11,242 nucleotides of DNA from a virus (IMGVR_UViG_2657245509_000010); one strand, 5' to 3'. Shown: positions 1 through 11,242, counted from the first letter of the stretch. Notes: generated by a model not told the origin, from the letters alone. Numbers and translations: made by a program.

Positions 1-32
1 CCGTAACGGGCCATAATTCCAGGAAGGACCCG
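1..32 (-). repeat. Terminal 32-bp repeat identical to 11211-11242; reverse complement resembles the cosQ-proximal sequence just upstream of lambda cosN
   Basis: Exact identity of window positions 1-32 and 11211-11242. Reverse complement 'cgggtccttcctggaattatggcccgttacgg' resembles the lambda right-end sequence '...ACGGGTCCTTTCCGGTGATCCGACAGGTTACG' (recalled from memory). Confidence 0.8.
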
Positions 33-65
33 ACGACACCAGACTATCAGAGCGATGGGGGCACA

Positions 66-347
66 ATGACAGAAGCCGAACTACTGGGATTAATCCGCCG
101 CGTCGCCGGAATCAGCCAGCAGCATGACGAACAGGCCACACAGCCGGACAGCGTGACCGCTGAAAATTATGTGCGTGTTGTAGCGGAAGTGATGCGCCGT
201 GATGGTATAGAACTTAATGGCGTTGATATGCGCAACATACGGAACCGCGTTCTTGAAATGCTGGCCTACAATCGCCGCGTTGAACTGTATCGGGAGAAAG
301 AAAAAATAACGTACCACTGGAAGAAGCCGGAACGGCTGCGGCGGTAA
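66..347 (+). CDS. Hypothetical protein (93 aa)
   Basis: ORF with a good Shine-Dalgarno ('tggggg') 5 nt upstream of the ATG at 66; no recognisable family by eye. Confidence 0.5.
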   Translation: MTEAELLGLIRRVAGISQQHDEQATQPDSVTAENYVRVVAEVMRRDGIELNGVDMRNIRNRVLEMLAYNRRVELYREKEKITYHWKKPERLRR

Positions 348-434
348 CTTGCTGATATTCCCGATAACGCAAAATTGCGCTGGCTACATCCTCACATCTG
401 AGGACTGTTAATCAGAAGGCCGGAATATATTCAC

Positions 435-457
435 AAACTACGAAATTTTCGTAGTTT
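435..457. repeat. 23-bp near-perfect palindrome AAACTACGAAA-T-TTTCGTAGTTT
   Basis: Read directly; one of several odd-centred palindromes in the 348-800 non-coding region (also 'cctcaatttgagg' and 'ggtcataatgacc'). Confidence 0.6.
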
Positions 458-807
458 AATTAATGGTCAGATTAATCGCTAACCCGCTGATATTTTCGGA
501 AACCTCAATTTGAGGAAGTCGGAAGCGTCACCCTTCATATTCTGAATGGTCATAATGACCACGCAGACCATCAAGGCAACCACAACGAACATCGTTACGG
601 TTGGAGCTTTTACCCCACTGGGGGAAAGGTATTACGATAATCATAACACCTACCGAACAGGTAAAACCCACCAGCCTGATTAACAGTTAACCGGAAAAAA
701 AATCCGGTAGCCCCGTTATGGGGATCCCCATATCGACATTAACGCCCCTCATGAATTGGTGCGCTTCCCCCTGGAAAGATTACCCGCCTGTATATTTCTT
801 GTGTCTA

Positions 808-868
808 TTTGTTCCACGTTGTTTCATACAGTGCACCGAACGGTGTAGTTAATGGTGTAGTCAATTTG
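808..868. repeat. Copy 1 of a ~65-bp imperfect direct repeat ending in tandem GGTGTAGTTAAT/GGTGTAGTCAAT motifs (842-865); candidate integrase arm-type binding sites
   Basis: 'ttgttccacgttgtttca...cggtgtagttaatggtgtagtcaat' recurs at 1032-1100; lies upstream of the integrase gene. Confidence 0.55.
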
Positions 869-1031
869 CTGTTTTTAGCACTTTTTGCAGTGTGGGTTGT
901 TTAATTAAATCAATGGGTTGCCTTGCTGTGGTGATAAAAGGACATATTTTATCAATTAGTGTTTTTTGCCGTTTCATAATGTTTCAGATTGTTCATTATA
1001 TTTTTGATTATAAACAGATTTGTGATTTTCC

Positions 1032-1100
1032 TTGTTCCAGCTTGTTTCACGTTGTAGCCCTTTGTGCAACGATCGGTGTAGTTAATGGTGTAGTTAATTG
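1032..1100. repeat. Copy 2 of the ~65-bp direct repeat with tandem GGTGTAGTTAAT x2 (1075-1098), directly abutting the integrase start
   Basis: Direct sequence comparison with 808-868. Confidence 0.55.
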
Positions 1101-1120
1101 TGATGACCGGAATCAAAATT

Positions 1121-2350
1121 ATGAGCAGAGCACTTAACAAACTGAGCGATACACAGCTGAGGAAAATCAACGGCACACCCGCCCAAAAAACAGCCTTTCT
1201 TAATGACGGTGGAAACCTGAGCGTCAGGCATTCAACCAGTGGCCTTTTAACCTGGTATTTCACTTACAGGGCCGGAACGGGAAGGGGGGCACCACCGGAA
1301 CGCATTAAGCTGGGAAATTATCCTGATCTGAGCCTGAAATCAGCCAGGGAAAAAGCCGCCCAGTGTCGCGCATGGCTGGCAGAGGGGAAAAATCCACGTC
1401 ATGAGCTTAATTACACCGTACAGGAAGCGTTAAAGCCGGTAACGGTTGGCGATGCGCTCACCTACTGGCTTGAGTCGTACGCAAAGGAAAACCGCGTGGA
1501 TTATGCCGCCCTGAAAAAGCGCCTTAATAATCACGTAATACAGCACATTGGTGCTATGCCGCTGGATAAATGCGAGCTACGGCACTGGCTGGCCTGTTTT
1601 GACCAGGTGGCAAAGCGAACGCCTGTTACTGCCGGATTCTTGCTACAGACGTGCAAACAGGCGCTTAAGTTCTGCCGGAGGCGGCGCTATGCAATCAGCA
1701 ACGTTCTTGATGATATGAGTGTGGCGGACGTTGGGAAAAAACCGGATATAAGCGAGCGTGTCTTAAGCACCAAAGAACTGGGCGAATTATTGCAGGCACT
1801 GGACAAAAAAATATTCTCCCCCTACTACATCGCGTTAATCCGCCTCCTGATTGTGTTCGGATGCCGGACGGTAGAACTGAGGTTATCGGAGATCAGCGAG
1901 TGGGATTTTACCGAAATGCTCTGGACCGTTCCGAAGGAGCACAGCAAAACGAAGGTAGCCATATTCCGGCCTATACCGGAAGCAATACTGCCGTTCATCA
2001 CGCAGCTGGTGGAGCAGAACAGGCACACGGGCTTATTGCTGGGGGAAGTGAAACAGGAGGCCAGCGTATCGCAGTATGGAAGATTAGCGCACAGGAGGCT
2101 TAATCACCCTCACTGGTCACTGCATGACATCCGGCGCACCTTTACAACCATGCTGAACGATTTAGGCGTTGATCCGCATGTCGTGGAGCAGCTTACAGGC
2201 CACCAGATGCCAGGAATGCAGCGAGTTTATAATCATTCCCGTTATCTGGATGCGAAACGCAATGCGCTGGATATGTGGACGGAGCGGTTAGGGATACTGG
2301 CGGGAACACATGAAAACGTAACCACGCTACCAGTAGCCAGAAGAAAATAA
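1121..2350 (+). CDS. int: Tyrosine site-specific integrase with arm-binding N-terminal domain (P4/PICI-type)
   Basis: N-terminus 'LSDTQLRKINGTPAQKTAFLNDGGNLSV...GNYPDLSLKSAREKAAQCRAWLAEGKNP' fits the arm-DNA-binding domain pattern; C-terminus has 'HDIRRTF' and 'RVYNHSRYL' as in catalytic tyrosine recombinase domains. Start is ambiguous (ATG at 1100, 1103 or 1121); the end is firm. Confidence 0.9.
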   Translation: MSRALNKLSDTQLRKINGTPAQKTAFLNDGGNLSVRHSTSGLLTWYFTYRAGTGRGAPPERIKLGNYPDLSLKSAREKAAQCRAWLAEGKNPRHELNYTVQEALKPVTVGDALTYWLESYAKENRVDYAALKKRLNNHVIQHIGAMPLDKCELRHWLACFDQVAKRTPVTAGFLLQTCKQALKFCRRRRYAISNVLDDMSVADVGKKPDISERVLSTKELGELLQALDKKIFSPYYIALIRLLIVFGCRTVELRLSEISEWDFTEMLWTVPKEHSKTKVAIFRPIPEAILPFITQLVEQNRHTGLLLGEVKQEASVSQYGRLAHRRLNHPHWSLHDIRRTFTTMLNDLGVDPHVVEQLTGHQMPGMQRVYNHSRYLDAKRNALDMWTERLGILAGTHENVTTLPVARRK

Positions 2351-2367
2351 TTTTTTTCGTGTTTTTT

Positions 2368-2383
2368 CAGTATGCGCATACTG
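2368..2383. repeat. Perfect 16-bp palindrome CAGTATGCGCATACTG in the int-alpA intergenic region
   Basis: Read directly. Confidence 0.6.
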
Positions 2384-2404
2384 GATATGCGAACAGATAC
2401 AACG

Positions 2405-2443
2405 TGCAACAATGAGCAACAATGTGGAACAACTACGAACAAG
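2405..2443. repeat. Short tandem direct repeats (GCAACAATG x2, then GAACAAC and GAACAAG); candidate protein-binding array
   Basis: Read directly in the 364-bp int-alpA intergenic region. Confidence 0.5.
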
Positions 2444-2714
2444 AGGCGAAAAAGCGTACGGATTTATAAGTAGCTGATTTTTAATGTGTTACTGGTTTTT
2501 TATACACTAGCGAATCACTCTTTAAAGAGCGAGAAAAAAGGCATGGAACAATATTTTATGCCTTTGTATTAACATGAATTTAAAAGATTTTATTCTTACT
2601 TTTTCATTTTCTGTAAATCATACATCCTCAGTATTTGCCATTCATCACTCTAGCGGGAACAATACGACACAATAAGACACCTGATGACTCTTTAAGAAAC
2701 GAAAGGGGGCAATA

Positions 2715-2903
2715 GTGTTAAGCACTGATCGGTTTATACGTGAAAAAGAATGCGAAAAACTAACCGGCCTTAGCCGTACGTGTCGCTACCGCCTGGAAAA
2801 GGCCGGACAATTCCCATCACGTCGTAAACTTGGCGGTCGTTCCGTTGGCTGGTCTTTATCCGAGGTTCTGGCCTGGAAGGATAGCTGCAAGGCAGTTCAT
2901 TAA
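2715..2903 (+). CDS. alpA: AlpA-family transcriptional regulator / excisionase-like protein (GTG start)
   Basis: 'LTGLSRTCRYRLEKAGQFPSRRKLGGRSVGWSLSEVLAWK' matches the AlpA/phage-excisionase HTH pattern; strong SD 'agggggc' 5 nt upstream of the GTG; located just after int as in Gram-negative PICIs. Confidence 0.85.
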   Translation: MLSTDRFIREKECEKLTGLSRTCRYRLEKAGQFPSRRKLGGRSVGWSLSEVLAWKDSCKAVH

Positions 2904-3049
2904 TCACGCTGGCGGCACACAGCCGCCACACATCAATCATCTGAACACAGAGCTATAACCATGAAGATTGAATATACGCCAGAACGTGGGCGGGGATTCG
3001 TTCGCCCTGGTGAGACTGGAAAACCACAAAATTGGGGTTTTTCAGGCAT

Positions 3050-3078
3050 AAAAAAAGCGGCCCCGAAATGGAGCCGCC
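3050..3078 (-). terminator. Probable rho-independent terminator for minus-strand transcripts (GC stem then T7 on the minus strand)
   Basis: Plus strand 'aaaaaaagcggccccgaaatggagccgc'; on the minus strand a gcggc/gccgc stem is followed by TTTTTTT. Confidence 0.45.
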
Positions 3079-3172
3079 TTTCTGAACAGATAACCCGCTG
3101 CGCCTTATGTGTATATGATCCCAAACATAAGCACGGGGATGATAGCCGCTATCAGGCTGGTGGGCAATGCTA

Positions 3173-3361
3173 TCAGTCTGGTTCAGTTCGTTGCCATACC
3201 TGCAATGGGCGCGTTTCCCTGTACTCTTTAAGGAATTGCTCAAGGGCAAAAGCACATGGCGCGAATCTTTCTGATTCATGCTCTATCTTTCTGCGCCGTC
3301 TTTTCCGTGCCGGTGATAATGTTTTGGTCAATTCTTTATCGGTCATTGTGTTGTCCTGCAT
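3173..3361 (-). CDS. Hypothetical small basic protein, downstream of the RHH gene on the minus strand (start uncertain; possibly ATG at 3346)
   Basis: ORF-track ORF; arginine/lysine-rich segment 'ARKRRRRK'; no strong SD, so low confidence. Confidence 0.3.
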   Translation of the reverse strand: MQDNTMTDKELTKTLSPARKRRRRKIEHESERFAPCAFALEQFLKEYRETRPLQVWQRTEPD

Positions 3362-3403
3362 AGCAATGCGCCGTAATACCTCACACCACGGCGCTGATAG
3401 TTT

Positions 3404-3577
3404 TTATCCTTTGGGTTCTATGCCGCGTTGCTGTAATTCTTTGCGGAGAACGCGTTTAATCCAAGTGGCTAAAGATGTGTCGCCATCGGCCTTAGCAGCT
3501 TCTTCTAGCTGCGCTCTGAAGTCTTCCGGTAATCGCATTTGGTATGGAGGCGAACGTTTTTCTAATGGTGTTGACAT
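3404..3577 (-). CDS. Arc/MetJ-type ribbon-helix-helix transcriptional repressor (57 aa); not in the ORF track
   Basis: Minus-strand translation 'MSTPLEKRSPPYQMRLPEDFRAQLEEAAKADGDTSLATWIKRVLRKELQQRGIEPKG' fits the Arc-family pattern (beta-strand 'YQMRLP', then two helices). Divergent from the rightward operon, with palindromic operators at its 5' end. Confidence 0.75.
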   Translation of the reverse strand: MSTPLEKRSPPYQMRLPEDFRAQLEEAAKADGDTSLATWIKRVLRKELQQRGIEPKG

Positions 3578-3645
3578 GGTAATTACCCTTTATTGCTATA
3601 CCTACATGGTAATTACCATTGTACTTGCCATTACACAAAAATCAA
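3571..3645. promoter_or_regulatory. Divergent control region with two copies of the palindrome GGTAATTACC (3578-3587, 3608-3617) and a minus-strand promoter (-10 TACAAT 3618-3623, -35 TTGATT 3640-3645); a perfect TTGACA on the plus strand at 3571-3576
   Basis: Both palindromes are preceded by 'ACAT' and are 30 bp centre-to-centre. One abuts the RHH start codon and the other abuts the putative -10, the classic autorepressor layout. The plus-strand -10 is weak. Confidence 0.6.
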
Positions 3646-3707
3646 CGCCCCGCAGTGCTGGGAACACATACGGGGCGTCTAACCAACAACGTAAACTAGG
3701 AGCCGTT

Positions 3708-3905
3708 ATGGTTGCCGTAAATCATATACCACACCTTGTACACACACAAACGGCCTTTGTGTGGCGTTTTCTGGCACTGAGTGCCGGAGAATCTCAAATC
3801 ATCCACGTAACCGCCTGGACGGAACGCGAAGCGCGTAACCGTTGCCCGTCCGGTTGTGTTGCTGTATTTGCCGCCCGTATTCGTCAGGAGGTGCGCCATG
3901 ATTAA
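3708..3905 (+). CDS. Icd-like (host cell division inhibitor-like) small protein, 65 aa
   Basis: 'FVWRFLALSAGESQIIHVTAWTEREARNRC...VFAARIRQEV' resembles the Icd-like proteins of enterobacterial P4-like and PICI elements (from memory). RBS 'aggag' 6 nt upstream. It is the true gene inside the chimeric 314-aa track ORF. Confidence 0.6.
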   Translation: MVAVNHIPHLVHTQTAFVWRFLALSAGESQIIHVTAWTEREARNRCPSGCVAVFAARIRQEVRHD

Positions 3906-4110
3906 TCTGTCACTTACTGACCTTAACCGCATTCAGTTTCGTGAGAAATTCACAGGGCAGCTACTGGTCAATGTGGATAAAGGTCGCGTGGTGTGTAATT
4001 ACCACTTACCAGATGAAGCAATTGTCGCCACAAGGGAATCATTACAGGAAATCACAAAACGTGCCGGAATGATTAACACGAATATTCAGGGGATGCTTTA
4101 TGCACAATAA
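3898..4110 (+). CDS. Hypothetical protein (70 aa)
   Basis: ATG overlaps the stop of the upstream gene (translational coupling); no family recognised. Confidence 0.5.
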   Translation: MINLSLTDLNRIQFREKFTGQLLVNVDKGRVVCNYHLPDEAIVATRESLQEITKRAGMINTNIQGMLYAQ

Positions 4111-4564
4111 AACCACACCGGACGCAGCCGCCGAAGCCATCAAAACGCTGATGCACGCGCTGATTGATATTTCTGTTATCGCGGACAGGGCACATAAGCA
4201 CGCCACCAGCGAAACAGAATATGCCGGTGCTTTCGTTCCTCACTCACTGGCTGTCATGCAATTTAGTGCTGATACGGCGCTGAATGAGGCCAAAGCTATC
4301 CTGATTGCTGATTGTGAAAATGGGGGGGTTATGCGTGATGATCGTTTTAATTCCCTGAAACAGGAATTTTCCGGCGTTCCTGATGATGCGGCTGATGCGC
4401 TTTCGTCAATGCCAGAACTTATTAGAGCGGCTTTTTTCTTACTTTCCACGAGAGAATATAAATCAACGGGGCTTGATGTACTGAATATCGCCGCCGATTA
4501 TGCGGAATATGTGGCAGAGGCGCGTTATAGAAGAAAATTTCCTGAGGATGTAAGCCATGCGTGA
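4100..4564 (+). CDS. Hypothetical protein (154 aa)
   Basis: Start overlaps the preceding stop; no recognisable motifs. Confidence 0.6.
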   Translation: MHNKTTPDAAAEAIKTLMHALIDISVIADRAHKHATSETEYAGAFVPHSLAVMQFSADTALNEAKAILIADCENGGVMRDDRFNSLKQEFSGVPDDAADALSSMPELIRAAFFLLSTREYKSTGLDVLNIAADYAEYVAEARYRRKFPEDVSHA

Positions 4565-4790
4565 TATTTACCACCAAACAATAGACCGCGCATTTCTTGC
4601 ACTTTCTCACAGTGAAAACATGATGGAAATATTGCGCATATGGCTTGAAACACTTGGCGACAATGAACGCGACAAACAAAAATCAAGAATTGCCACGGCA
4701 TTAATAACGCTTCTTGAGCCTGTAATAATGGAACTGCAAGAAATAGATCTATTGCACGACAGATATAAAGAACAGCACACCGGAGAATAA
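4557..4790 (+). CDS. Hypothetical protein (77 aa)
   Basis: 8-nt overlap with the upstream gene; SD 'gagga' upstream. Confidence 0.55.
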   Translation: MRDIYHQTIDRAFLALSHSENMMEILRIWLETLGDNERDKQKSRIATALITLLEPVIMELQEIDLLHDRYKEQHTGE

Positions 4791-4795
4791 AAATA

Positions 4796-5095
4796 ATGAA
4801 ACTTAAATATTCTGGCTTAACTGCCAGTGGCAACACTCACCCTAAATTTACGCGCGGTGATATTTACCGCGACCAGTACGGCGGCACGGTAATGATTAAG
4901 GGCGTGGAAGAACGGCGCGTAACCTACCGCCGTGAAGGTTACGAATATGATTGCGTGATGCCTGTTTATCAGTTCCGGCGTGATTTTTCTCTGGTACAGA
5001 CCGCGCCGCATAACGTGCCCACCAGCAACGCCAGGGCACGGGCAAACATCCAGAAGCTGAAAACCATGGTTAACGGATTCAGGGGCAAGAAATGA
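4796..5095 (+). CDS. Hypothetical protein (99 aa)
   Basis: SD 'ggaga' about 10 nt upstream; stop overlaps the start of the replication ATPase gene. Confidence 0.6.
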   Translation: MKLKYSGLTASGNTHPKFTRGDIYRDQYGGTVMIKGVEERRVTYRREGYEYDCVMPVYQFRRDFSLVQTAPHNVPTSNARARANIQKLKTMVNGFRGKK

Positions 5096-6492
5096 AAAGC
5101 GCACCGAACTTAAAAAAACAGCCTTACGACAAGATGACCGAAGTCATTATTTTTGCGGGTAGTGATGCCTGGGCACATGCGAAACAGTGGCAGGAACAGG
5201 ACGGGCGACTGGCTGGCGATAATGTGCCTCCCGTTGTGCTGGCTGATGATCAACTGGATGAACTGGCAGAACTGAGAATCATCGACGAGGGGCGCTATTG
5301 TGTCCGGCTGTACAAGGCAGGCCACATCAGGCCATCAAATATTAATGCCATTGCGCACAAGCTGGCGGCGGCGGGTGTAACTGATGCGAATTATTACCCC
5401 GAAGGGATGCACAGCCATATGCGGGAGAACTGGCGCGAATACCTGGAACGGGTGCGCGGGAAAGAGCCGGCGGAAGAAAAAAACCACCAGCGAAAAACCA
5501 CGCTACCGATGAGCGTTGGATCTACCGGATACGACACGCAACTGGATTACGTGGTTAAGGGGATTATTCCGGCGGTATCGCTATGCAGCATATACGGGGC
5601 TAGCGGGTCCTATAAATCATTCCTTGCCGGATCGTGGGCGTGCCATGTTGCCACTGGTCGCCAGTGGGGAGGCCGCAGGGTTGCACATGGTGCGGTTCTC
5701 TATGTGGTTGGTGAAGGCGGTATAGGTGTTCCGCGTCGTGTAAAAGCCTGGGAGGTTGTGCACGATGAGCAGGTGAAAAATCTGTATCTGGTAAACCGCC
5801 CCATCTTTCCGGCTGCCCCGCTTGATGTTGATGAAATGGTTATCGCTGCCCGTCAGGTGGAGCGGGAAACGGGTAAACCTGTACGCATGATTATTCTGGA
5901 TACGCTGGCGCGTTGCTTTGGTGGGAATGATGAAAATGATTCCCGTGATATGGGGGCGTTTATCCGTGGTTGTGACGAACTGAAACGACGCACAGGGGCC
6001 ACGGTGCTGGTGGTTCACCATTCCGGCAAGGATGAGACGAAAGGCGCGCGCGGTTCCAGTGCATTTCGTGCTTCGCTGGATGCTGAATACCGGATACGCA
6101 GGGAGGACGCAGGAAGCGAAGCGCTGGTTATCTCATGCACCAAAATGAAGGACGCGGAGGAACTCAAAGAAGCCGCATATGACTTACGCGTGGTGGAGCT
6201 TTTTACCGACGCTGACGGTGAATTAATCACGTCGCTGGTGGTGGTGGATGATCCGCGCCCTCCTGTTGAACTGGAGCGCATCGAGGAGGCAGGGAACAAG
6301 ACGGAAAACCATACCGCGCTATGGGGGTGCATCCGTTCACGCACACAGAACGGCGACAAGTGCACGATCCCGCTGTTACGTGATGACATGAAAAAGCTGG
6401 GGTATGAAATGAAAAACTTCCGGCGCTGGCTGTACAAGCTGGAAAAAGATGGGGTTATTCGTATCGATGGGGATGATGTAGCGCCGCTATAA
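5092..6492 (+). CDS. RepA/DnaB-like RecA-fold replication ATPase (satellite replicase-helicase) with a probable C-terminal winged-helix domain
   Basis: P-loop-like 'GASGSYKS', Walker-B-like 'MIILDTLARCFGG', and 'VLVVHHSGKDETKGARGSSAFRASLDAEYRIRRE' typical of RepA-like helicases; C-terminus 'WLYKLEKDGVIRI' looks wHTH-like; an iteron array lies immediately downstream. Confidence 0.8.
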   Translation: MKSAPNLKKQPYDKMTEVIIFAGSDAWAHAKQWQEQDGRLAGDNVPPVVLADDQLDELAELRIIDEGRYCVRLYKAGHIRPSNINAIAHKLAAAGVTDANYYPEGMHSHMRENWREYLERVRGKEPAEEKNHQRKTTLPMSVGSTGYDTQLDYVVKGIIPAVSLCSIYGASGSYKSFLAGSWACHVATGRQWGGRRVAHGAVLYVVGEGGIGVPRRVKAWEVVHDEQVKNLYLVNRPIFPAAPLDVDEMVIAARQVERETGKPVRMIILDTLARCFGGNDENDSRDMGAFIRGCDELKRRTGATVLVVHHSGKDETKGARGSSAFRASLDAEYRIRREDAGSEALVISCTKMKDAEELKEAAYDLRVVELFTDADGELITSLVVVDDPRPPVELERIEEAGNKTENHTALWGCIRSRTQNGDKCTIPLLRDDMKKLGYEMKNFRRWLYKLEKDGVIRIDGDDVAPL

Positions 6493-6684
6493 AAGTGAGG
6501 AGCAAAAGCGAGGGGGATAGAAAGAGGGCCAAAATTAGCCCGCTCTCCCTCACTTTTCGACCTGTATACATCCTCAAAAGTGAGGGGTAAAAAAATACTT
6601 ATGAAACACACACATAGAAAAACCGAAAATCCCAACTGCGACGAAGTGAGACGCTTGAAAAAGTGAGGCGAAAAAGTGAGAGGT
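6491..6684. repeat. Iteron array (at least six copies of AAGTGAG(G/A) in both orientations); putative replication origin
   Basis: Copies at about 6493, 6549 (inverted), 6579, 6643, 6660 and 6674, immediately 3' of the replication ATPase gene. Confidence 0.65.
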
Positions 6685-6692
6685 TGCGAGAA

Positions 6693-6944
6693 ATGACCCA
6701 AAAACGCAGAGACAGAACAGAGCCAAAATATAAAGCGTTAGACATGACTGAGCACACCTTAAAGGTGGCAATCAGAACGATAGACCGCCACACGCGGGAA
6801 GGATACGCGAAGGAACATCCCGACCTGATAAGCGCATTCATGACCACGGCGGCGGCAAACTTTGCCACGCTGACAGAACGGGAGATTGCCGAAGCGGAAC
6901 AGGTAACAACCATCAACGTTAAAACCGGAGAGGTGGAATTATGA
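6693..6944 (+). CDS. Hypothetical protein (83 aa; alternative GTG start at 6663)
   Basis: ATG with SD 'gagagg'; the upstream in-frame extension would overlap the iterons. Confidence 0.5.
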   Translation: MTQKRRDRTEPKYKALDMTEHTLKVAIRTIDRHTREGYAKEHPDLISAFMTTAAANFATLTEREIAEAEQVTTINVKTGEVEL

Positions 6945-7351
6945 CGGCACAGATAGCCGCTTACGGGCGGCTGGTGGACGACCCGCAGGTAAAACAGACC
7001 AGCAAGGGCACACCGATGACGCTGGCGCGTATGGCGGTATCTTTGCCATGCAGCCAGGCACAGGACGGACAGGCGACGTTATGGTTATCGGTCATCGCAT
7101 TTGGCAAACAGGCCGGCTTCCTGGCTAAACATCAAAAAGGCGATGTTGCCAGCGTATCCGGCACGATGCAGGTAAGCCAGTGGACCGGACAGAACGGAGA
7201 AACGCGGCAGGGCTGGCAGGTTATCGCAGACAGCGTAATCAGTGCCCGCGCGGCACGTCCAGGCGGGAACAGACGCAAAACCACAGGCACACAGGGTAAT
7301 CAGCCACCAGCGGGAGGCGATGACCCTTACGGTGATGATATTTCGTTCTGA
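6941..7351 (+). CDS. ssb: Single-stranded DNA-binding protein (SSB-like OB fold with acidic C-terminal tip)
   Basis: Glycine/proline-rich linker and C-terminal 'DDPYGDDISF', comparable to E. coli SSB '...DDDIPF'; OB-fold-like N-terminus; start overlaps the upstream stop. Confidence 0.75.
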   Translation: MTAQIAAYGRLVDDPQVKQTSKGTPMTLARMAVSLPCSQAQDGQATLWLSVIAFGKQAGFLAKHQKGDVASVSGTMQVSQWTGQNGETRQGWQVIADSVISARAARPGGNRRKTTGTQGNQPPAGGDDPYGDDISF

Positions 7352-7361
7352 GGGGGTGACG

Positions 7362-7634
7362 ATGGTACATGACCGCATAGCGGAGGAACTGGAGGCGAAA
7401 GGCTTTTACCGGAGGGCGGCGGCGCGATGGGGTGAAGTCATGCAGCTGGTGGAGACAGACAAGGAACGGCATCACATCACGATGCGACGGCTGGAATGTT
7501 CAAGGAAGGCACAGAGGGCACCGGAGCCGCCGGATAATTTCGGAGACCTGAAAAAGGCAGTCGATCGCACTTATGCCGAAATGGGTATAGATGGTGCTGG
7601 TGATGAAATATGGCGCAATTACCAGGACAGCTAA
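7362..7634 (+). CDS. PerC-family transcriptional regulator-like protein (90 aa)
   Basis: 'AEELEAKGFYRRAAARWGEVM' matches the PerC/Pch hallmark (LExKG-W/Y-RRAA-xW). The true start is the ATG at 7362 with SD 'gaggggg'; the longer track ORF (7242-) would overlap ssb. Confidence 0.6.
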   Translation: MVHDRIAEELEAKGFYRRAAARWGEVMQLVETDKERHHITMRRLECSRKAQRAPEPPDNFGDLKKAVDRTYAEMGIDGAGDEIWRNYQDS

Positions 7635-7640
7635 TCAAAC

Positions 7641-7664
7641 AGCCGGAGAAATCCGGCTTTTTTT
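7641..7664 (+). terminator. Rho-independent terminator (GCCGGA-GAAA-TCCGGC then T7)
   Basis: Stem-loop plus T-run directly after the perC-like stop. Confidence 0.8.
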
Positions 7665-7760
7665 GCACCAGTTGAAACGGTATGGCGCATTACCGGGTTT
7701 TCGTCACGGTCAGGCATAGTTACTATCTGAAACAAACAGACACAACAGAGGAAAAAAACA

Positions 7761-7985
7761 ATGCCGATGAAATTTGATGAGATATTAAAACAGCGTGATA
7801 AATACCATGCTGACAACATGGAGACGATGAGCATCAATGATTACCGCGCATTCCTGGAGACGGGCGCACTGATTGAAAAGGATCAGCATGGTTTTGTGAG
7901 ATGTGCTCTATCCGGTGAAATGCTGGCGGTAAATCCTGAACAGATAGATGCATTGATAGAATTTCTGAAAGAGATCAGAGACTGA
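7761..7985 (+). CDS. Hypothetical protein (74 aa), an isolated transcription unit
   Basis: SD 'gagga' upstream; flanked by terminators at 7641-7664 and 8005-8075. Confidence 0.55.
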   Translation: MPMKFDEILKQRDKYHADNMETMSINDYRAFLETGALIEKDQHGFVRCALSGEMLAVNPEQIDALIEFLKEIRD

Positions 7986-8004
7986 GCCAGCACACAGCAC
8001 ACAT

Positions 8005-8027
8005 AGCCGGAGCAATCCGGCTTTTTT
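8005..8027 (+). terminator. Rho-independent terminator (GCCGGA-GCAA-TCCGGC then T6)
   Basis: Variant of the same hairpin as at 7641 and 10278. Confidence 0.75.
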
Positions 8028-8033
8028 GCGCCC

Positions 8034-8075
8034 AAAAAAAGCCCGATAAGGTCAGAGGGTTCTTATCGGGCTTTT
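8034..8075. terminator. Second hairpin, possibly bidirectional (A7, 10-bp stem GCCCGATAAG/CTTATCGGGC, T4)
   Basis: Read directly; A-run upstream and T-run downstream. Confidence 0.6.
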
Positions 8076-8148
8076 GCATATGAGGTTTTTGGATGCACTG
8101 GCGTTCGTGATCGGGATAATCATTTCATAATTTGCAACATAACTCAAT

Positions 8149-8201
8149 ATCATTGCATAAAATGCAATTCTGATTATAATCAGGACTGGATAAACATCCA
8201 G
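8149..8201 (+). promoter_or_regulatory. Putative promoter of the capsid operon (-35 TTGCAT 8153-8158, 16-bp spacer, -10 TATAAT 8175-8180) embedded in three consecutive palindromes
   Basis: Palindromes ATTGCAT-AAA-ATGCAAT, CTGATTATAATCAG (contains the -10) and CTGGAT-AAAC-ATCCAG; first promoter-like signal after the double terminator. Confidence 0.55.
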
Positions 8202-8236
8202 TTATGATTTTTTTAGTCGAAGAGGAATTTCTTACT

Positions 8237-8443
8237 ATGGCTGAAGAGAAAAAAAGCGGTGTTTCGGTGTACATAAGCCCCGAAATCGTGGAGGTGCTCA
8301 AGCAGCGCCACAAAAAAAACTATGAAGCTGGCGTTGCGGCTGGACTGGATCCGCTGATGACGCCGGAGCCGTCGATAGGTTCACTTGTACGCTCTTATTT
8401 ACTTGCGGCGCTTGGGATGCATAAAAATTATGGGGGTGAATAA
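8237..8443 (+). CDS. Hypothetical protein (68 aa) translationally coupled to the major capsid gene (alternative start 8204)
   Basis: Stop and start overlap as TAATG at 8441-8445; position corresponds to where scaffold or head-accessory genes sit in head operons. Confidence 0.5.
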   Translation: MAEEKKSGVSVYISPEIVEVLKQRHKKNYEAGVAAGLDPLMTPEPSIGSLVRSYLLAALGMHKNYGGE

Positions 8444-9498
8444 TGGCAGGCAAAGCAACGGCACTTAACACTAACCAGCTTTTCATGTACCTGAATCGCG
8501 GGGATATTGCGGATTTTAAATTCAGCCCTCTGTTTACCACGCTGTTTTTCCCGAACGTGGCGACATTCAGCACGCAAAACATCATGCTGGATACCCTGGA
8601 CATTGAAGAAGTCACCATGTCGGCGTTTTGTTCGCCTATGGTGGGTAGCCAGGTTCAGCGCGATAAAGGGTACGAAACCAGCACAATCAAACCTGGCTAC
8701 ATGAAGCCAAAGCACGAAATCGATCCAACGAAAACCATCATGCGCATGGCTGGAGAAGATCCGGCACAGCTTAACGACCCTACCTATCGCCGTATGCGCC
8801 TGATTACTGGCAACATGCGCCGCCAGATAAACGCCATTAAGGCACGCGTGGAATGGCTGGCGGTGAATGCGGTAACGACCGGAAAAAACATCATTGAGGG
8901 CGAAGGCATAGAACGCTATGAAATCGACTGGAAAATACCGGAAAACTGCATCATAGAGCAGGCCAAGGGTAAAAAATGGTCCGAGCAGGATAAAGACATG
9001 CACGACCCAATCTATGACATCGAGCTTTATGCTGATCAGGCTGGTTGCCCCGCAAACGTCATGATTATGGGCGCTGAGGTATGGCGCACATTACGCAGCT
9101 TTAAAAAATTCCGTGAGCTGTACGATCTTTCCCGTGGTTCAGAATCCGCCGCCGAACTGGCCTGTAAAAACCTGGGCGAAGTGGTGAGCTTTAAAGGCTA
9201 TCTTGGTGATCTGGCCCTTATCGTCTATTCCGGCAAATACACTGACAGCGATGGTACCGAAAAATATTTCCTTGAGCCTGATTTGCTGGTCCTGGGTAAC
9301 ACCAACAATAAAGGGCTGGTGGCCTATGGTGCGATAATGGATCAGGAAGCGGTAAGAACGGGCGCAACACAAAACATGTTTTACCCGAAAAACTGGATTG
9401 AGGACGGCGATCCGGCGATTGAGTACGTGCAGACACACAGTGCACCGCAGCCGGTACCGGCAGATATTCGCAAATTTGTTACCGTCAAAATTGGTTAA
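8443..9498 (+). CDS. Major capsid protein, lambda gpE-like (HK97 fold family)
   Basis: Blocks 'KFSPLFTTLFF', 'PGYMKPKHEIDP', 'DPTYRRMRL', 'FRSFK', 'YPKNWIEDGDPAIEY' align with lambda gpE 'KFDPLFLRLFF', 'PGYVKPKHEVNP', 'DPAYRRRRI', 'FRSFK', 'YPKNWVTTGDPAREF' (recalled sequence). 351 aa against about 341 aa for gpE. Confidence 0.9.
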   Translation: MAGKATALNTNQLFMYLNRGDIADFKFSPLFTTLFFPNVATFSTQNIMLDTLDIEEVTMSAFCSPMVGSQVQRDKGYETSTIKPGYMKPKHEIDPTKTIMRMAGEDPAQLNDPTYRRMRLITGNMRRQINAIKARVEWLAVNAVTTGKNIIEGEGIERYEIDWKIPENCIIEQAKGKKWSEQDKDMHDPIYDIELYADQAGCPANVMIMGAEVWRTLRSFKKFRELYDLSRGSESAAELACKNLGEVVSFKGYLGDLALIVYSGKYTDSDGTEKYFLEPDLLVLGNTNNKGLVAYGAIMDQEAVRTGATQNMFYPKNWIEDGDPAIEYVQTHSAPQPVPADIRKFVTVKIG

Positions 9499-9510
9499 CG
9501 GGGGGATTCT

Positions 9511-9846
9511 ATGGACACTCCATACATTGAGTTATTTGCAGGCAGTCAGCAGGTATCCACGACGTTGGTACATTTTGCCGCTGATGCTGGCGTTATTCAG
9601 GAATTTACCCCGCTGATGCTGGCAGACAATGGCGAGTTTAAGCCGTGGGATGGTCAGGAATCTGGCAAGGCTGTTTATCTGACCTCGTACCCTGTGGACA
9701 CGTCAAAGCAGAAATCAGCACAGTGTTACAAGACGGGGATATTCAATATTGCCGCCGTTAACTGGCCTGAGAGCGTCGACACCGATGCGAAAAAATGCGC
9801 CGCCTTTGCGGGTTCCGGCGTATCCGTTCAGCCGCTGGCCCGATAA
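9511..9846 (+). CDS. Head decoration protein, lambda gpD-like
   Basis: 'TPLMLADNGEFKPWDG...KKCAAFAGSGVSVQ' aligns with gpD 'TPLMLDTSSRKLVAWDG...KKRTAFAGTAISIV'; 111 aa against 110 aa. Confidence 0.85.
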   Translation: MDTPYIELFAGSQQVSTTLVHFAADAGVIQEFTPLMLADNGEFKPWDGQESGKAVYLTSYPVDTSKQKSAQCYKTGIFNIAAVNWPESVDTDAKKCAAFAGSGVSVQPLAR

Positions 9847-9858
9847 GCAGGGGGAACG

Positions 9859-10272
9859 ATGGCAACGAATGAAAGCATCATGACGCTACCGCTGGCGAGT
9901 AAATTTAAAGTCGAAGCGCGGGCAATGGCTGACAGAGGTTTATCAACCTATGAGGCCGTATATCAACTAAACAAACTGGAAGAGCAGGACAAGCCGTGCG
10001 CTGATGCGATTATGGCGCTTCATGAGCATAAAGACTATCAGCCGCTGTTGCGTGCAATGGCAAACGTGCCTTGTATCGATGTTGGTACGGCTAAAAGCAT
10101 CCTTAGCATGACCATAGAGCAGGAACGTCCGAAGGTTGCGCCGGAACTTACCGCAGCCTTTGAAAACTTTATGGACATGCACAGCCCGCAAGCCGTATCA
10201 GCTGGCATGGCATACGATGGCAGAAACCAGGGCGATGACGGCGACATCGATCGCATACTGAAAACCATCTGA
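9859..10272 (+). CDS. Hypothetical protein (137 aa) between the decoration gene and cos
   Basis: Good SD 'aggggga'; no resemblance to lambda FI/FII by eye. Confidence 0.6.
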   Translation: MATNESIMTLPLASKFKVEARAMADRGLSTYEAVYQLNKLEEQDKPCADAIMALHEHKDYQPLLRAMANVPCIDVGTAKSILSMTIEQERPKVAPELTAAFENFMDMHSPQAVSAGMAYDGRNQGDDGDIDRILKTI

Positions 10273-10277
10273 GACAA

Positions 10278-10300
10278 GGCCGGAGAAATCCGGCTTTTTT
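10278..10300 (+). terminator. Rho-independent terminator (GCCGGA-GAAA-TCCGGC then T6), third copy of the hairpin family
   Basis: Immediately 5' of cos. Confidence 0.8.
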
Positions 10301-10368
10301 ACGGGTCCTTCCTGGAATTATGGCCCGTTACGGGGCGGCGACCTCGCGGATTTTCGCTATTTATGAGC
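10301..10368 (+). other. cos site (cosQ-cosN), lambda-like; predicted 12-nt cohesive end GGGCGGCGACCT at 10333-10344
   Basis: 'acgggtccttcctggaattatggcccgttacg|gggcggcgacct|cgcggattttcgctatttatga' against lambda 'ACGGGTCCTTTCCGGTGATCCGACAGGTTACG|GGGCGGCGACCT|CGCGGGTTTTCGCTATTTATGA' (from memory); located about 135 bp upstream of the Nu1-like gene. Confidence 0.85.
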
Positions 10369-10438
10369 CTTTTCAGGGTGGTGGTGGTGGTTTTGTTGTT
10401 TGATCTATCTTTATGAATGAAAAGGGAAAGATGCAAGC

Positions 10439-10476
10439 AATACACCAACCTGAAGCAGTAATTAAGTTGGTGTATT
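10439..10476 (+). promoter_or_regulatory. 11-bp inverted repeat AATACACCAAC-N16-GTTGGTGTATT abutting the terS start codon; candidate element-specific cosB R sites or translational control hairpin
   Basis: Read directly; sits where lambda has the inverted R2/R1 Nu1-binding sites before Nu1. Confidence 0.5.
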
Positions 10477-10477
10477 A

Positions 10478-11020
10478 ATGAAATCTCATCTGATGAACAA
10501 AAAAAACATGGCGAAAAGCTGCCGTGTAAGTGCGACAGCGTTCGACAAGTGGGGAGTAACTCCCGTTGAGCGTAAAGGCCGTGAGGCGTTTTATGATGTT
10601 GCCAGCGTGATAGAAAATAGGGTTAACAATGCAATTAGCCAGCTTATAAACGACAAAGGCGAGATTGACGATGATGAACTTTTACGAGTCAGGATCAGAT
10701 TACTGACAGCACAGGCAGAGGCGCAGGAACTTAAAAACGATCGCGATCGCGGTGACGTGATTGATACTGAGTTTTGCCTGTACGCGCTTTCAAAGCTGGC
10801 GAGTCAGATTTCATCAATCATGGACAGCCTCCCGCTTACTATGCAAAGGAGCTTCCCACAGATTACCCCCGCCATGCTGGACAGGCTTAAAAGGGAAGTG
10901 GTTAAAGCCTGTAATGCCAGTGCCAGAGTTGCCGACAACCTCCCACAGATACTGGCTGATTACTTGAAAGAAACAACCGGAAACGTACCGGAAAAGTTGC
11001 TACAGAAGAAAGGCGAGTAA
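10478..11020 (+). CDS. Terminase small subunit, lambda Nu1-like
   Basis: 'LTAQAEAQELKNDRDRGDVIDTEFCLYALSKLASQISSIMDSLPLTMQRSFP' aligns with Nu1 'LTRAQADAQELKNARDSAEVVETAFCTFVLSRIAGEIASILDGLPLSVQRRFP'; N-terminus 'NKKNMAKSCRVSATAFDKW' against 'NKKQLADIFGASIRTIQNW'. 180 aa against 181 aa. Start may be the ATG at 10493. Confidence 0.9.
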   Translation: MKSHLMNKKNMAKSCRVSATAFDKWGVTPVERKGREAFYDVASVIENRVNNAISQLINDKGEIDDDELLRVRIRLLTAQAEAQELKNDRDRGDVIDTEFCLYALSKLASQISSIMDSLPLTMQRSFPQITPAMLDRLKREVVKACNASARVADNLPQILADYLKETTGNVPEKLLQKKGE

Positions 11021-11039
11021 CAGACGCGCAATTATTGAA

Positions 11040-11242
11040 CAAAAATGAGAAAGGATCTGATAATGGCATTTTCTGGCTAAAATGCCTCGTGTCAGATCCT
11101 TTCTTTTTTTAATATTTTCATTGTTAAACAGTCTGTTACAGAGAAGAAGATCGGATCTGACTTTTGCCGGAAAATTCTCATAAACAGATAAAAACCGCGA
11201 GGTCGCCGCCCCGTAACGGGCCATAATTCCAGGAAGGACCCG
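11040..11242 (-). other. Second cos site in inverted orientation (cosN reverse complement at 11200-11211) with a full-length lambda-like cosB arm; cosQ part is the terminal repeat
   Basis: Reverse complement reads 'cgggtccttcctggaattatggcccgttacg|gggcggcgacct|cgcggtttttatctgtttatgagaattttccgg...tcttcttc...', tracking the lambda left end 'CGCGGGTTTTCGCTATTTATGAAAATTTTCCGG...TTCTTCTTCG' further than the 10301 cos does. Confidence 0.8.
11048..11110. terminator. Nested inverted repeat AGAAAGGATCTGA...TCAGATCCTTTCT followed by T7; likely terS terminator and, on the other strand, lambda-like cosB R2/R1-type sites
   Basis: 13-bp arms at 11048-11060 and 11093-11105 with an inner GGCATTTT/AAAATGCC hairpin; the reverse complement aligns with the lambda cosB region 'GAAAAGAAAGGAAACGACAGG...CCTCTGTCGTTTCCTTTCT'. 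Confidence 0.6.

Follow-up and report, generated by a model that had tools for sequence, protein, structure and literature searches.

The 11,242-nt stretch of DNA analysed here (the window) very probably represents EcCIRM12579 after excision and circularisation; this 11.2-kb element of E. coli is a classical Gram-negative PICI (phage-inducible chromosomal island). The element is not new: it was catalogued as a PICI under that name in 2018. Its gpE-like, gpD-like, and Nu3-tail-like genes are a conserved accessory module, dispensable for transfer in the sister island EcCICFT073.

Identity and Boundaries

When the window is opened at its 10-bp att core, it matches EcCIRM12579 with 99.89% identity over 11,220 bp (BLAST, NC_017656.1 1438155-1449376; 10 mismatches and 2 gaps), and an island of strain EC4115 with 100% identity over its full length (BLAST, NC_011353 1535498-1546717). 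Fillol-Salom et al. (2018, ISME J; PMC6092414) list the first of these intervals as EcCIRM12579 in their Table S1 and enter the EC4115 island in Table S2 as an 11.2-kb PICI; accession and coordinates in both tables agree with the BLAST matches. The island of O157:H7 EC4115/TW14359, EcCIRM12579, and the window are the same element, alike in att core, insertion site, size, rgdR, and perC, except that the RM12579 annotation splits a 154-aa ORF of the window into two genes. A literature search by name found no published experiments on EcCIRM12579 itself.

The two ends of the window overlap by 32 bp, so that it closes to a circle of 11,210 unique bases and is a circular permutation rather than an integrated copy; the integrated island is 11,220 bp long. 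The integration site of EcCIRM12579 in E. coli O55:H7, O157:H7, and related strains is GGACATATTT, lying between ycfD/roxA and phoQ, and the same att core is given for both EcCIRM12579 and EcCICFT073 in Table S1 (PMC6092414). Since roxA(ycfD) bounds the element on one side and phoQ on the other, nothing is hidden just outside the window, in particular no portal, large terminase (TerL), or protease genes, whose presence there would have counted against the reading in the initial annotation. Around the core, each of the two 75-nt repeats of the attP region ends in a tandem pair of GGTGTAGTYAAT (at 842, 854, 1075, and 1087), found in four copies where 0.06 would be expected by chance; these flanking pairs are presumed arm-type integrase sites. 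Among complete E. coli genomes, 364 contain at least 80% of the window.

Gene Content and Class Membership

The genes named in the initial annotation (integrase, AlpA, RepA-type ATPase, SSB, and gpE-, gpD-, and Nu1-like proteins), together with the iterons and cos, were all recovered by Pfam, BLASTP, or sequence matches (Table 1). The + strand is fully taken up by identified genes, and transcription is essentially rightward. The backbone is not entirely co-oriented as had been described, two small conserved ORFs (3173-3361 and 3404-3577) lying on the minus strand, but the rest does run rightward. AAGTGAG occurs six times in the window, always within 6493-6680, directly 3' of repA, and nowhere else. 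AlpA is an excisionase-like activator in Gram-negative PICIs (PMC6092414); RgdR, a regulator of LEE type III secretion (PMC3378721), and PerC are accessory virulence regulators.

Table 1. Features of the window, with coordinates counted from its first base.
Feature	Coordinates	Strand	Evidence or remarks
Terminal redundancy	1..32		bases 1-32 repeat 11211-11242
93-aa conserved hypothetical protein, phrog_1561	66..347	+	last gene of integrated island; 88% identical to EcCICFT073 counterpart
attP region	792..1099	+	two 75-nt direct repeats, 792-866 and 1025-1099
att core GGACATATTT	940..949	+	joint of right and left ends of integrated island
Tyrosine integrase, arm-binding N-terminal domain	1121..2350	+	Pfam Arm-DNA-bind_3 and Phage_integrase
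AlpA regulator	2715..2903	+	Pfam, 5e-17
Small ORF, 62 aa, phrog_21027	3173..3361	-	conserved in EcCICFT073
Small ORF, 57 aa, Arc-like / YlcI-YnfO family	3404..3577	-	weak matches
Icd-like host cell-division inhibitor homologue	3708..3905	+	
Three small conserved hypothetical genes (70, 154, and 77 aa)	3898..4790	+	PHROGs without assigned function
RgdR (DUF4222, 99 aa, RGD at residues 20-22)	4796..5095	+	sequence; Table S1 of PMC6092414
RepA-family AAA_25 replication ATPase	5092..6492	+	Pfam, 2e-43
Replication origin, AAGTGAG iterons	6491..6683		five direct, one inverted
83-aa conserved hypothetical protein, phrog_1231	6693..6944	+	
Single-stranded DNA-binding protein (SSB)	6941..7351	+	Pfam, 9e-16
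PerC/Pch-family transcriptional activator	7362..7634	+	
Two small conserved hypothetical genes	7761..8443	+	7761-7985 and 8237-8443
gpE-type (HK97-fold) major capsid protein homologue, 351 aa	8443..9498	+	Pfam Phage_cap_E, 5.5e-50
gpD-type head decoration protein homologue, 111 aa	9511..9846	+	Pfam HDPD/gpD, 5e-18
137-aa protein, c1501 homologue	9859..10272	+	C-terminal homology to gpC/Nu3; no protease domain
cos1	10302..10477	+	cosQ-like sequence, cosN GGGCGGCGACCT (10333-10344), island-specific cosB region; terS next, as in lambda
Full-length Nu1-type small terminase subunit (TerS), 180 aa	10478..11020	+	Pfam Phage_Nu1, 3e-23; at rppA position of EcCICFT073
cos2, inverted	11021..11242	-	cosN 11211-11200, lambda-architecture cosB

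These features place the element among the Gram-negative PICIs, in agreement with the authors' own listing (Fillol-Salom et al., 2018). It is a discrete island within the usual ~8-15 kb, with att repeats at a non-prophage site; it has int at the left end, followed by alpA and, the two minus-strand ORFs excepted, rightward transcription; it encodes its own replication initiator (RepA AAA_25) with an iteron origin directly 3'; and it lacks lysis and tail genes and has an incomplete packaging set, which in this class consists of cos, TerS or Rpp, and often a capsid homologue. Helper induction, specific high-frequency transfer, and helper interference are on record only for the sister EcCICFT073. 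With the Rpp-type cos PICIs (Fillol-Salom et al., 2019) it shares lambda-type cosQ/cosN with an island-specific cosB, but not an Rpp protein binding helper TerS. Of the set that defines capsid-forming PICIs (capsid, protease, portal, connectors, HNH, TerS, and TerL; Alqurainy et al., 2023) it has the capsid homologue and TerS only, and none of the P4-like satellite set (Sid, Psu, Delta, and alpha primase-helicase with integrase) was found by Pfam or PHROG search.

The Capsid Module

The capsid homologue covers positions 16-328 of the 329-position Phage_cap_E profile, a full-length homology. In direct BLASTP comparisons it is 43% identical to lambda gpE over 327 aa (5e-92), and the decoration homologue 36% identical to lambda gpD over 76 aa (3e-13); no phage protein in the collection searched is more than 47% identical to the capsid homologue. 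Homology to the C-terminal end (~80 aa) of lambdoid gpC/Nu3 protease-scaffold proteins covers residues 49-131 of the 137-aa protein (phrog_53, 4.7e-9; 39% identity, 3e-11). The initial annotation had reported the absence of portal, protease, scaffold, TerL, and tail genes; this stands for portal, TerL, protease domain, and tail, which no ORF of the window matches in Pfam or PHROGs (nor do any match head-tail connectors or HNH), but not for scaffold, given this Nu3 C-terminal homology. The module order, E-D-Nu3tail-cos-terS, differs from that of lambda.

The capsid region is 94% identical in nucleotide sequence to that of EcCICFT073, and the module proteins 96-98% identical (96.6% for the capsid homologue and c1499, 98.2% for the decoration homologue, 96.4% for the 137-aa protein). 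About 11% of complete E. coli genomes contain capsid-family genes of Gram-negative PICIs, and 592 of the 598 E. coli genomes with the module have all three of its genes intact. The module is under purifying selection, with dN/dS of 0.03-0.4 in most comparisons (0.06-0.16 for the capsid homologue, 0.03-0.18 for the decoration homologue), and so has some function that the label "accessory, dispensable" leaves unexplained.

The c1499 (capsid) and c1500 (head decoration) genes of EcCICFT073 were described by Fillol-Salom et al. (2018; PMC6092414). Deletion of either left both transfer and interference unchanged; transfer of an island carrying cat in place of c1499 reached 1e5-1e6 per ml; and all packaged DNA was phage-sized (PMC6092414). 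Of the 29 Gram-negative PICIs used as reference, 21 carry a capsid gene (PMC10111431), and the SatelliteFinder PICI model includes capsid morphogenesis and TerS among its core components. The view that classical PICIs carry no major capsid gene therefore holds only for the Gram-positive SaPIs. Because this exact island was already listed as a PICI, capsid genes are common in its class, and the deletions had no effect, neither the suggestion that the gene set fits no known satellite nor the prediction of a self-built gpE-type shell is supported, though the latter keeps a small probability for EcCIRM12579 itself or with other helpers.

cos Sites and Small Terminase

Two perfect lambda cosN 12-mers, one on each strand, lie inside a ~76-bp inverted repeat, and about 30 further bases are common to the window and lambda cos. 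The cosB of cos2 has three R-like elements (R3 11163-11148, R2 11104-11089, R1 11063-11048) with the common core TCAGATCC; this clean, lambda-like R3/R2/R1 layout is absent from cos1. Both sites are conserved with cos1 and cos2 of EcCICFT073, in which cos1 is essential and cos2 is not. Action of TerS at cos1, as proposed below, fits a natural variant, strain 400625, that has kept TerS and cos1 and lost cosB2; the R-element layout of cos2 speaks against it, as does another natural variant with a point mutation in cosN of cos1 and an intact cos2.

By direct BLASTP, residues 6-166 of TerS align with residues 3-180 of lambda Nu1 at 36% identity (1e-33); phrog_57 covers residues 1-174, and the best phage identity is 44% (N15). 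The homology to Nu1 is full-length, from the winged-helix region at the N-terminus to the TerL-binding region at the C-terminus, and binding to cosB R elements and to TerL is predicted. The C-terminal two-thirds, the TerL-binding part in lambda, reaches 41% identity with lambda and 49% with PhiR12, but the last 38 residues are just 29% identical to lambda Nu1, so that pairing with a lambda-type TerL is not assured.

Helper and Proposed Life Cycle

A co-resident lambdoid prophage, which the initial annotation had suggested seeking, is indeed present: EC4115 carries a lambda-type prophage at icd, about 8 kb from the island, whose Nu1, gpE, and gpD are 97.8, 98.8, and 99.1% identical to those of lambda and whose cosN is the same. 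The helper of EcCICFT073 is likewise located at icd (PMC10111431), and that island is induced and transferred by lambda, phi80, and one resident prophage (PMC6092414); its interference with lambda was mapped to rppA.

From the EcCICFT073 experiments and the anatomy of the island we infer the following steps for EcCIRM12579. A lambdoid helper would activate AlpA, after which Int would excise the island, and RepA and SSB would replicate it from the iteron origin to yield concatemers. The helper's lambda-type TerL could then cut the lambda-identical cosN of the island, with packaging specificity coming from the island's own Nu1-type TerS and not from an Rpp protein. TerS would most likely bind the island-specific cosB beside cos1, while the phage-type cosB of cos2 could serve the helper's own TerS. 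The DNA would most likely be packaged as a multimer into full-size heads made by the helper; four copies come to 44.8 kb.

Comparison with Other Satellites

EcCIRM12579 is the sister of EcCICFT073, the studied model Gram-negative cos PICI, with the same ycfD-phoQ site and att core and the same gene order (int-alpA-...-rgdR-rep-ori-ssb-perC-capsid-decoration-137aa-cos1-X-cos2-93aa). The two differ in the inter-cos cassette X, which is RppA (144 aa) in EcCICFT073 and Nu1-type TerS (180 aa) in the window, each with its own cosB, and in the replication protein, a primase in the former and a RepA AAA_25 ATPase in the latter. In other O157:H7 strains the same chromosomal site holds EcCIEDL933 (Sakai Sp7, O-island 51), a capsid-forming PICI of 15.4 kb. 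The left half of Sp7 shares order and annotation with the window (int, rgdR, ssb, and the PerC homologue PchE), but Sp7 has a different major head protein gene, a prohead protease, portal, head-tail adaptor, TerS, and TerL, whereas the window is without portal, protease domain, adaptors, HNH, and TerL.

As proposed here, redirection of helper TerL to satellite DNA by a satellite TerS resembles SaPI1 and SaPIbov1, and a satellite-coded capsid-protein homologue is shared with SaPIbov5 (Ccm). SaPI TerS, however, directs headful (pac) packaging, whereas the window has a cos system with lambda-type cosN; and, unlike for SaPIs, no size redirection has been shown for the Gram-negative PICI family to which it belongs. 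The P4-type integrase, AlpA/Vis-like regulator, ~11 kb size, and cos held in common with the helper recall P4, but the window lacks homologues of Sid, Psu, Delta, and alpha primase, and its helper is lambda-like, not P2-like.

Alternative Interpretations

If the satellite did build its own, possibly smaller, gpE-type and gpD-decorated shell around helper portal, protease, and TerL, it might package a monomer or dimer. A full-length capsid homologue and a decoration homologue are consistent with this, as is a Nu3-tail-like product with a possible affinity for capsid protein, all three being kept intact under purifying selection, and the divergence of the capsid protein from those of phages points to a long independent satellite history. 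Both published marked islands also bear the marker inside the module (c1501::tetA, c1499::cat), so the small-capsid tests may have used a disabled module, with lambda rather than a natural helper. Yet the c1499::cat island still transfers, loss of c1499 or c1500 alters nothing, the packaged DNA is phage-sized, and a shell only 41-47% identical to the helper capsid would still have to be compatible with the portal, protease, and head-tail joining proteins of the helper; we regard self-built shells as very unlikely. The module could instead interfere with or remodel helper heads, its products co-assembling or competing with the capsid or scaffold proteins of particular lambdoid phages to poison heads or, with helpers other than those studied, redirect their size. 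The 137-aa protein has only the C-terminal tail of gpC/Nu3, which by analogy follows the logic of CpmB. CpmB, the scaffold mimic of SaPI1, has in common with the phage scaffold the end that binds capsid protein. An analogy to Ccm, the SaPIbov5 capsid homologue, was raised already in PMC6092414; the nearest phage relatives of the capsid protein, Nu3 tail, and TerS C-terminus all belong to one group, PhiR12/PhiR5, and the cosB of EcCICFT073 cos2 is nearly identical to that of PhiR12. Purifying selection would fit as well. Such a role nonetheless seems unlikely, as deletion of c1499 or c1500 left lambda interference, which maps to rppA, unrelieved, and no small capsids were seen with lambda (PMC6092414). 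A combined version, in which the trio is a working remodelling or shell-forming device only with natural helpers (PhiR12-like, for example), missed because of in-module markers and tests with lambda and phi80, and in which TerS in place of Rpp is the ancestral state of Rpp, is in our estimation improbable.

The Nu1-like protein, for its part, might act as Rpp proteins do, forming a hetero-complex with helper TerS that blocks phage packaging, instead of as a stand-alone TerS. Its gene sits exactly at the rppA position between cos1 and cos2, and Rpp is thought to be TerS-derived, with a TerS-like DNA-binding domain. But no window protein, this one included, has detectable similarity to RppA or to the RppC structure, whereas RppA as positive control finds RppC at 5e-31; and the protein is full-length, with an alignment to Nu1 that extends across the part responsible for TerL binding in lambda. 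An Rpp-like action is thus distinctly unlikely, and a stand-alone TerS is preferred. As for a decayed lambdoid prophage that has retained E, D, Nu1, and cos, the structural genes are of lambda-type families, the cosN is identical to lambda's, and such O157 islands were for a long time annotated as defective prophages. This origin is refuted by the precise boundaries with att core and arm-type repeats, the recurrence of the same 11.2-kb unit in 364 genomes, the unlambda-like gene order, the divergence of the proteins from phage homologues (at most 47% identity) under purifying selection, and the PICI-type replicon and regulators, and has next to no chance of being correct; the initial annotation rightly treated the element as a discrete satellite and not a prophage fragment.

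Implications

With the island, its class, and its partial head kit all published in 2018, the element carries little weight as a discovery. It does touch two of the field's stated questions: the role of capsid-family genes in Gram-negative PICIs, and the origin of Rpp proteins together with the reason for two cos sites. Being nearly isogenic with EcCICFT073, the laboratory model for Gram-negative PICIs, and having a full-length Nu1-type TerS in place of Rpp, it is a natural comparison for both the capsid and the Rpp/cos questions. In enterohaemorrhagic E. coli it also carries the LEE regulators RgdR and PerC.

Identity and integration site

The island is already catalogued as a PICI, and its gene set is typical of the family. 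By megablast against complete E. coli genomes, the window is 100% identical over its full length in many O157:H7 strains, and at least 80% of it is covered in 364 of 5,426 genomes. The match to strain EC4115 is in two pieces, with window 940-11242 running from chromosomal position 1535498 on and window 1-949 running up to 1546717, so that the window is the integrated island circularly permuted, with the joint at a 10 bp core. In Table S1 of Fillol-Salom et al. (2018; PMC6092414), EcCIRM12579 of E. coli O55:H7 RM12579 (NC_017656.1, 1438155-1449376, 11.2 kb) is listed with att core GGACATATTT, location ycfD-phoQ, and accessory genes rdgR and perC. Over 11,220 bp, the linearised window aligns to that interval at 99.89% identity, the differences being 10 mismatches and two gaps. 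In Table S2 of the same paper (PMC6092414), the EC4115 island is entered as a PICI of 11.2 kb at 1535498-1546717 (the end coordinate, as extracted, has one digit too many), the coordinates of the megablast match, and the TW14359 island and two O145:H28 islands are entered as “same as EC4115.” Identification with Sakai SpLE2 or O-island 51 was considered, but is wrong: the site in Sakai and EDL933 holds the capsid-forming PICI Sp7/EcCIEDL933.

The integrated island is flanked by roxA (ycfD) and the 3′ end of phoQ, with housekeeping genes on both sides, so there are no head or tail genes just beyond it. The initial annotation, made from sequence without database searches, was right to call a satellite: this is a discrete island, with its att core between roxA and phoQ. 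On each side of the core is a tandem pair of GGTGTAGTYAAT (four copies, vs. 0.06 expected by chance), the layout expected of arm-type sites for an integrase with an arm-binding domain. The core also lies between two direct repeats of 75 nt, each terminating in the 26-mer CGGTGTAGTTAATGGTGTAGTYAATT, which Table S1 (PMC6092414) gives for a different PICI, EcCIDi14, as its “att site core.”

The window ends overlap by 32 bp (1-32 repeated at the 3′ end). The window begins with the final base of the cosN 12-mer of cos2, one of two inverted cos sites on either side of terS, so that the window starts no more than one base from the end of a cos2-cut molecule. The source contig could have come from packaged or excised DNA, or this start could be due to chance or to rotation by the assembler.

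Gene content

Genes were identified from a six-frame ORF listing with Pfam and PHROG scans.

Features of the island, in window coordinates
Feature	Position	Strand	Basis or remark
93-aa hypothetical protein	66-347	+	ORF listing
75-nt direct repeats	792-866, 1025-1099		76% identical
GGTGTAGTYAAT tandem pairs	842-865, 1075-1098		
att core	940-949		GGACATATTT
Integrase with arm-binding domain	1121-2350	+	Pfam/PHROG
AlpA	2715-2903	+	Pfam/PHROG
phrog_21027 small ORF	3173-3361	-	against otherwise unidirectional transcription
Arc-like/YlcI-YnfO-like small ORF	3404-3577	-	against otherwise unidirectional transcription
Icd-like gene	3708-3905	+	
154-aa ORF	4100-4564		phrog_5146 and phrog_24341
99-aa DUF4222 protein	4796-5095	+	RGD at residues 20-22
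RepA-type AAA_25 ATPase	5092-6492	+	Pfam/PHROG
AAGTGAG heptamers	6493-6680		six copies
SSB	6941-7351	+	Pfam/PHROG
PerC-family regulator	7362-7634	+	Pfam/PHROG
Phage_cap_E capsid protein	8443-9498	+	E = 5.5e-50
gpD-type decoration protein	9511-9846	+	5e-18
137-aa protein	9859-10272	+	ORF listing
cos1 cosN	10333-10344	+	zero mismatches
Phage_Nu1 small terminase	10478-11020	+	3e-23
cos2 cosB	11048-11163	-	three R-like elements
cos2 cosN	11200-11211	-	zero mismatches

The gene set is compact, with several small conserved genes besides the Icd-like one, and leaves no room for more on the coding strand. All genes had been described as co-oriented; this holds for nearly all of them, the exceptions being the two small minus-strand ORFs. 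RefSeq annotates both of these on the minus strand in CFT073, and an Icd-like pseudogene on the plus strand over the same stretch in EC4115. The 154-aa ORF matches its two separate PHROGs end-to-end and is annotated as two genes in RM12579, having been either fused in the window or split in RM12579, a difference that may explain the two alignment gaps. The 99-aa protein is identified by its RGD motif as RgdR, a LEE regulator (Flockhart et al., PMC3378721). All copies of AAGTGAG in the window are directly downstream of repA.

In direct comparisons, the capsid protein is 43% identical to lambda gpE over 327 residues, the decoration protein 36% identical to gpD over 76 residues, and TerS 36% identical to Nu1 over its full length. 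No ORF in the window matched portal, large terminase, protease-domain, tail, or lysis families by Pfam or PHROG; PADLOC found no defence genes in it, Rfam no RNA families, and ARAGORN no tRNAs. Pfam and NCBIfam have no family for the 137-aa protein, the 93-aa protein, or the small hypothetical proteins. The gene set noticed initially was thus confirmed by the ORF listing, the family scans, the lambda comparisons, and two perfect cosN sites, and the absence of portal, TerL, protease, and tail genes was borne out, extending past both ends of the island into roxA and phoQ.

Relatives at the same site

EcCICFT073, the laboratory model for Gram-negative cos PICIs, is at the same site in strain CFT073 and has the same gene order. 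Across 7987-10373 the two islands are 94% identical at the nucleotide level, and protein identity is 96.6% for capsid, 98.2% for decoration, and 96.4% for the 137-aa protein. The islands differ in two modules. As replication protein, CFT073 has a primase and the window a RepA ATPase; between the cos sites, CFT073 has rppA (144 aa; the Rpp proteins of PICIs bind helper TerS) and the window the gene for a 180-aa Nu1-type TerS. In Sakai and EDL933, the roxA-phoQ site is occupied by Sp7 (EcCIEDL933), a 15.4 kb capsid-forming PICI (Sakai region L003, 34712-49001). Its left half (int, rgdR, ssb, pchE) is ordered as in the window, while the right half is taken up by a complete head and terminase module of HK97 type, with genes for major head protein, protease, portal, adaptor, TerS, and TerL. 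Three related satellites that differ in their packaging modules thus share a single attachment site.

The capsid module

A satellite with its own capsid gene had initially been taken as novel, on the premise that classical PICIs carry none, and was proposed to build a gpE-type shell of its own. The premise is wrong for Gram-negative PICIs, because 21 of 29 reference examples have a major capsid gene, which is dispensable for transfer (PMC10111431, published in 2023), and because SatelliteFinder counts capsid-morphogenesis and TerS genes as core PICI components. Published evidence from EcCICFT073 is also against a self-built shell: deletion of c1499 (capsid) or c1500 (head decoration) left both lambda interference and transfer unchanged, an island with c1499 replaced by cat was transferred at 1e5-1e6 per ml, and the packaged DNA was all phage-sized (PMC6092414). 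The model island is packaged as ~45 kb concatemers (PMC10111431). A caveat on these negative results is that the marked islands are named c1501::tetA and c1499::cat (PMC6092414), so that both markers appear to be inside the capsid module; c1501 is the 137-aa gene. A self-built shell retains a small residual probability.

The capsid module is not decaying, and there is evidence of purifying selection: in pairwise comparisons of four alleles, dN/dS was 0.06-0.16 for capsid, 0.03-0.18 for decoration, and 0.21-0.63 for the 137-aa gene, with 0.17-0.19 for TerS. The three-gene block is found in 598 of 5,426 genomes, with at least 80% coverage in 592 of these. The terS cassette is in more genomes (766); it follows that there are islands, such as those of O26:H11 and O145 strains, with this TerS and either a diverged capsid module or none. 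Among the proteins of 50,697 phage records, none is more than 47% identical to the capsid protein or 44% to TerS, so these are old satellite lineages rather than recent captures.

The 137-aa protein went unrecognised in the initial annotation. Its residues 49-131 match the last ~80 residues of the PhiR12-type gpC/Nu3 protease-scaffold protein at 39% identity (E-value 3e-11 pairwise, 4e-5 in the database search), and there is a match to the PHROG profile “head maturation protease” at its C-terminal end (4.7e-9). The protein lacks a peptidase domain and does not align with lambda Nu3 itself by BLASTP, the homology being seen only against the PhiR12-type protein and the PHROG profile. The initial statement that neither scaffold nor protease is encoded therefore stands for a protease domain, but has to be qualified for this protease-scaffold tail. 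The PICI papers cited here assign the protein no function in their text. Gene order is E-D-Nu3 tail in the island vs. C/Nu3-D-E in lambda.

The cos sites and small terminase

The lambda cosN 12-mer, GGGCGGCGACCT, is present in two perfect copies, both within a ~76 bp inverted repeat bracketing the terminase gene. In cos1 the order is cosN, an island-specific cosB, then terS, as in lambda; this cosB has no match in the phage collection. The R-like elements of the cos2 cosB are located at +49, +108, and +149 relative to cosN (vs. +49, +109, and +151 in lambda), with the common core TCAGATCC where lambda has TCGTTTCC. This 8-mer is found in the window only at those three positions, vs. 0.35 occurrences expected. 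Phage SerU-LTIIb, with an AGATCC core common to its R elements, has a cosB 72% identical to that of cos2; the cos2 cosB of EcCICFT073 (L002, 8160-8352) is nearly identical to the cosB of PhiR12-type phages (PhiR12_2_star cos; L005, 840-1080). It is also in PhiR12-type phages that the capsid protein and Nu3 tail are closest to the island's. Together, these likenesses suggest PhiR12-like phages as natural helpers.

In our reading of the sequences, cos1 would be an island-specific site and cos2 a phage-type one; natural variants point both ways on their roles. Strain 400625 retains TerS and cos1, and has lost cosB2 and part of cosN2 (L009, 3329-4160); in strain 2011C-4251, cosN1 is point-mutated to GGGCGGAGACCT and cos2 is intact (L010, 3329-4340). 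Inversion of the segment between the cos repeats to give a lambda-like cosB-terS order was rejected, terS being convergent with the R elements in both orientations.

The alignment of TerS with Nu1 extends across the part to which TerL binds in lambda, and the C-terminal two-thirds of TerS is 41% identical to lambda and 49% to PhiR12. A far more diverged N-terminus was considered, but against lambda it is 36% identical; only against PhiR12 is there a contrast (16% vs. 49%). TerS has no similarity to RppA or to the RppC crystal structure sequence, in a comparison where RppA finds RppC at 5e-31 as a positive control. Searches of PDB sequences with TerS and the 137-aa protein gave nothing meaningful.

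A probable packaging pathway

In the most likely pathway, the induction, replication, and TerL-cutting steps are taken from EcCICFT073, and TerS specificity and multimer packaging are inferred from sequence. AlpA would be activated by a lambdoid helper, Int would excise the island, and RepA and SSB would replicate it from the iteron origin. The helper's lambda-type TerL would then cut the island cosN, which is identical to lambda's, with packaging specificity presumably coming from the island's own TerS. Four genome copies (44.8 kb) would make a lambda-sized headful; three (33.6 kb) would be under-length.

The genomic context, which the initial annotation had singled out for inspection, does include a co-resident lambda-type prophage, at icd in EC4115, 8 kb from the island. 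Its Nu1, gpE, and gpD are 97.8, 98.8, and 99.1% identical to lambda's, and it has the same cosN. The helper of EcCICFT073 is likewise at icd (PMC10111431). In the EC4115 prophage (L006, 388-35183), the lambda-like head and tail region is complete, replication gene O is truncated, and no repressor region is visible; the prophage may supply structural proteins while unable to propagate itself.

These results add modestly to the picture of these PICIs, with a Nu3-tail homology, a lambda-like layout of R elements in cos2, the exchange of TerS for Rpp between near-isogenic islands, and evidence of purifying selection on the capsid module.
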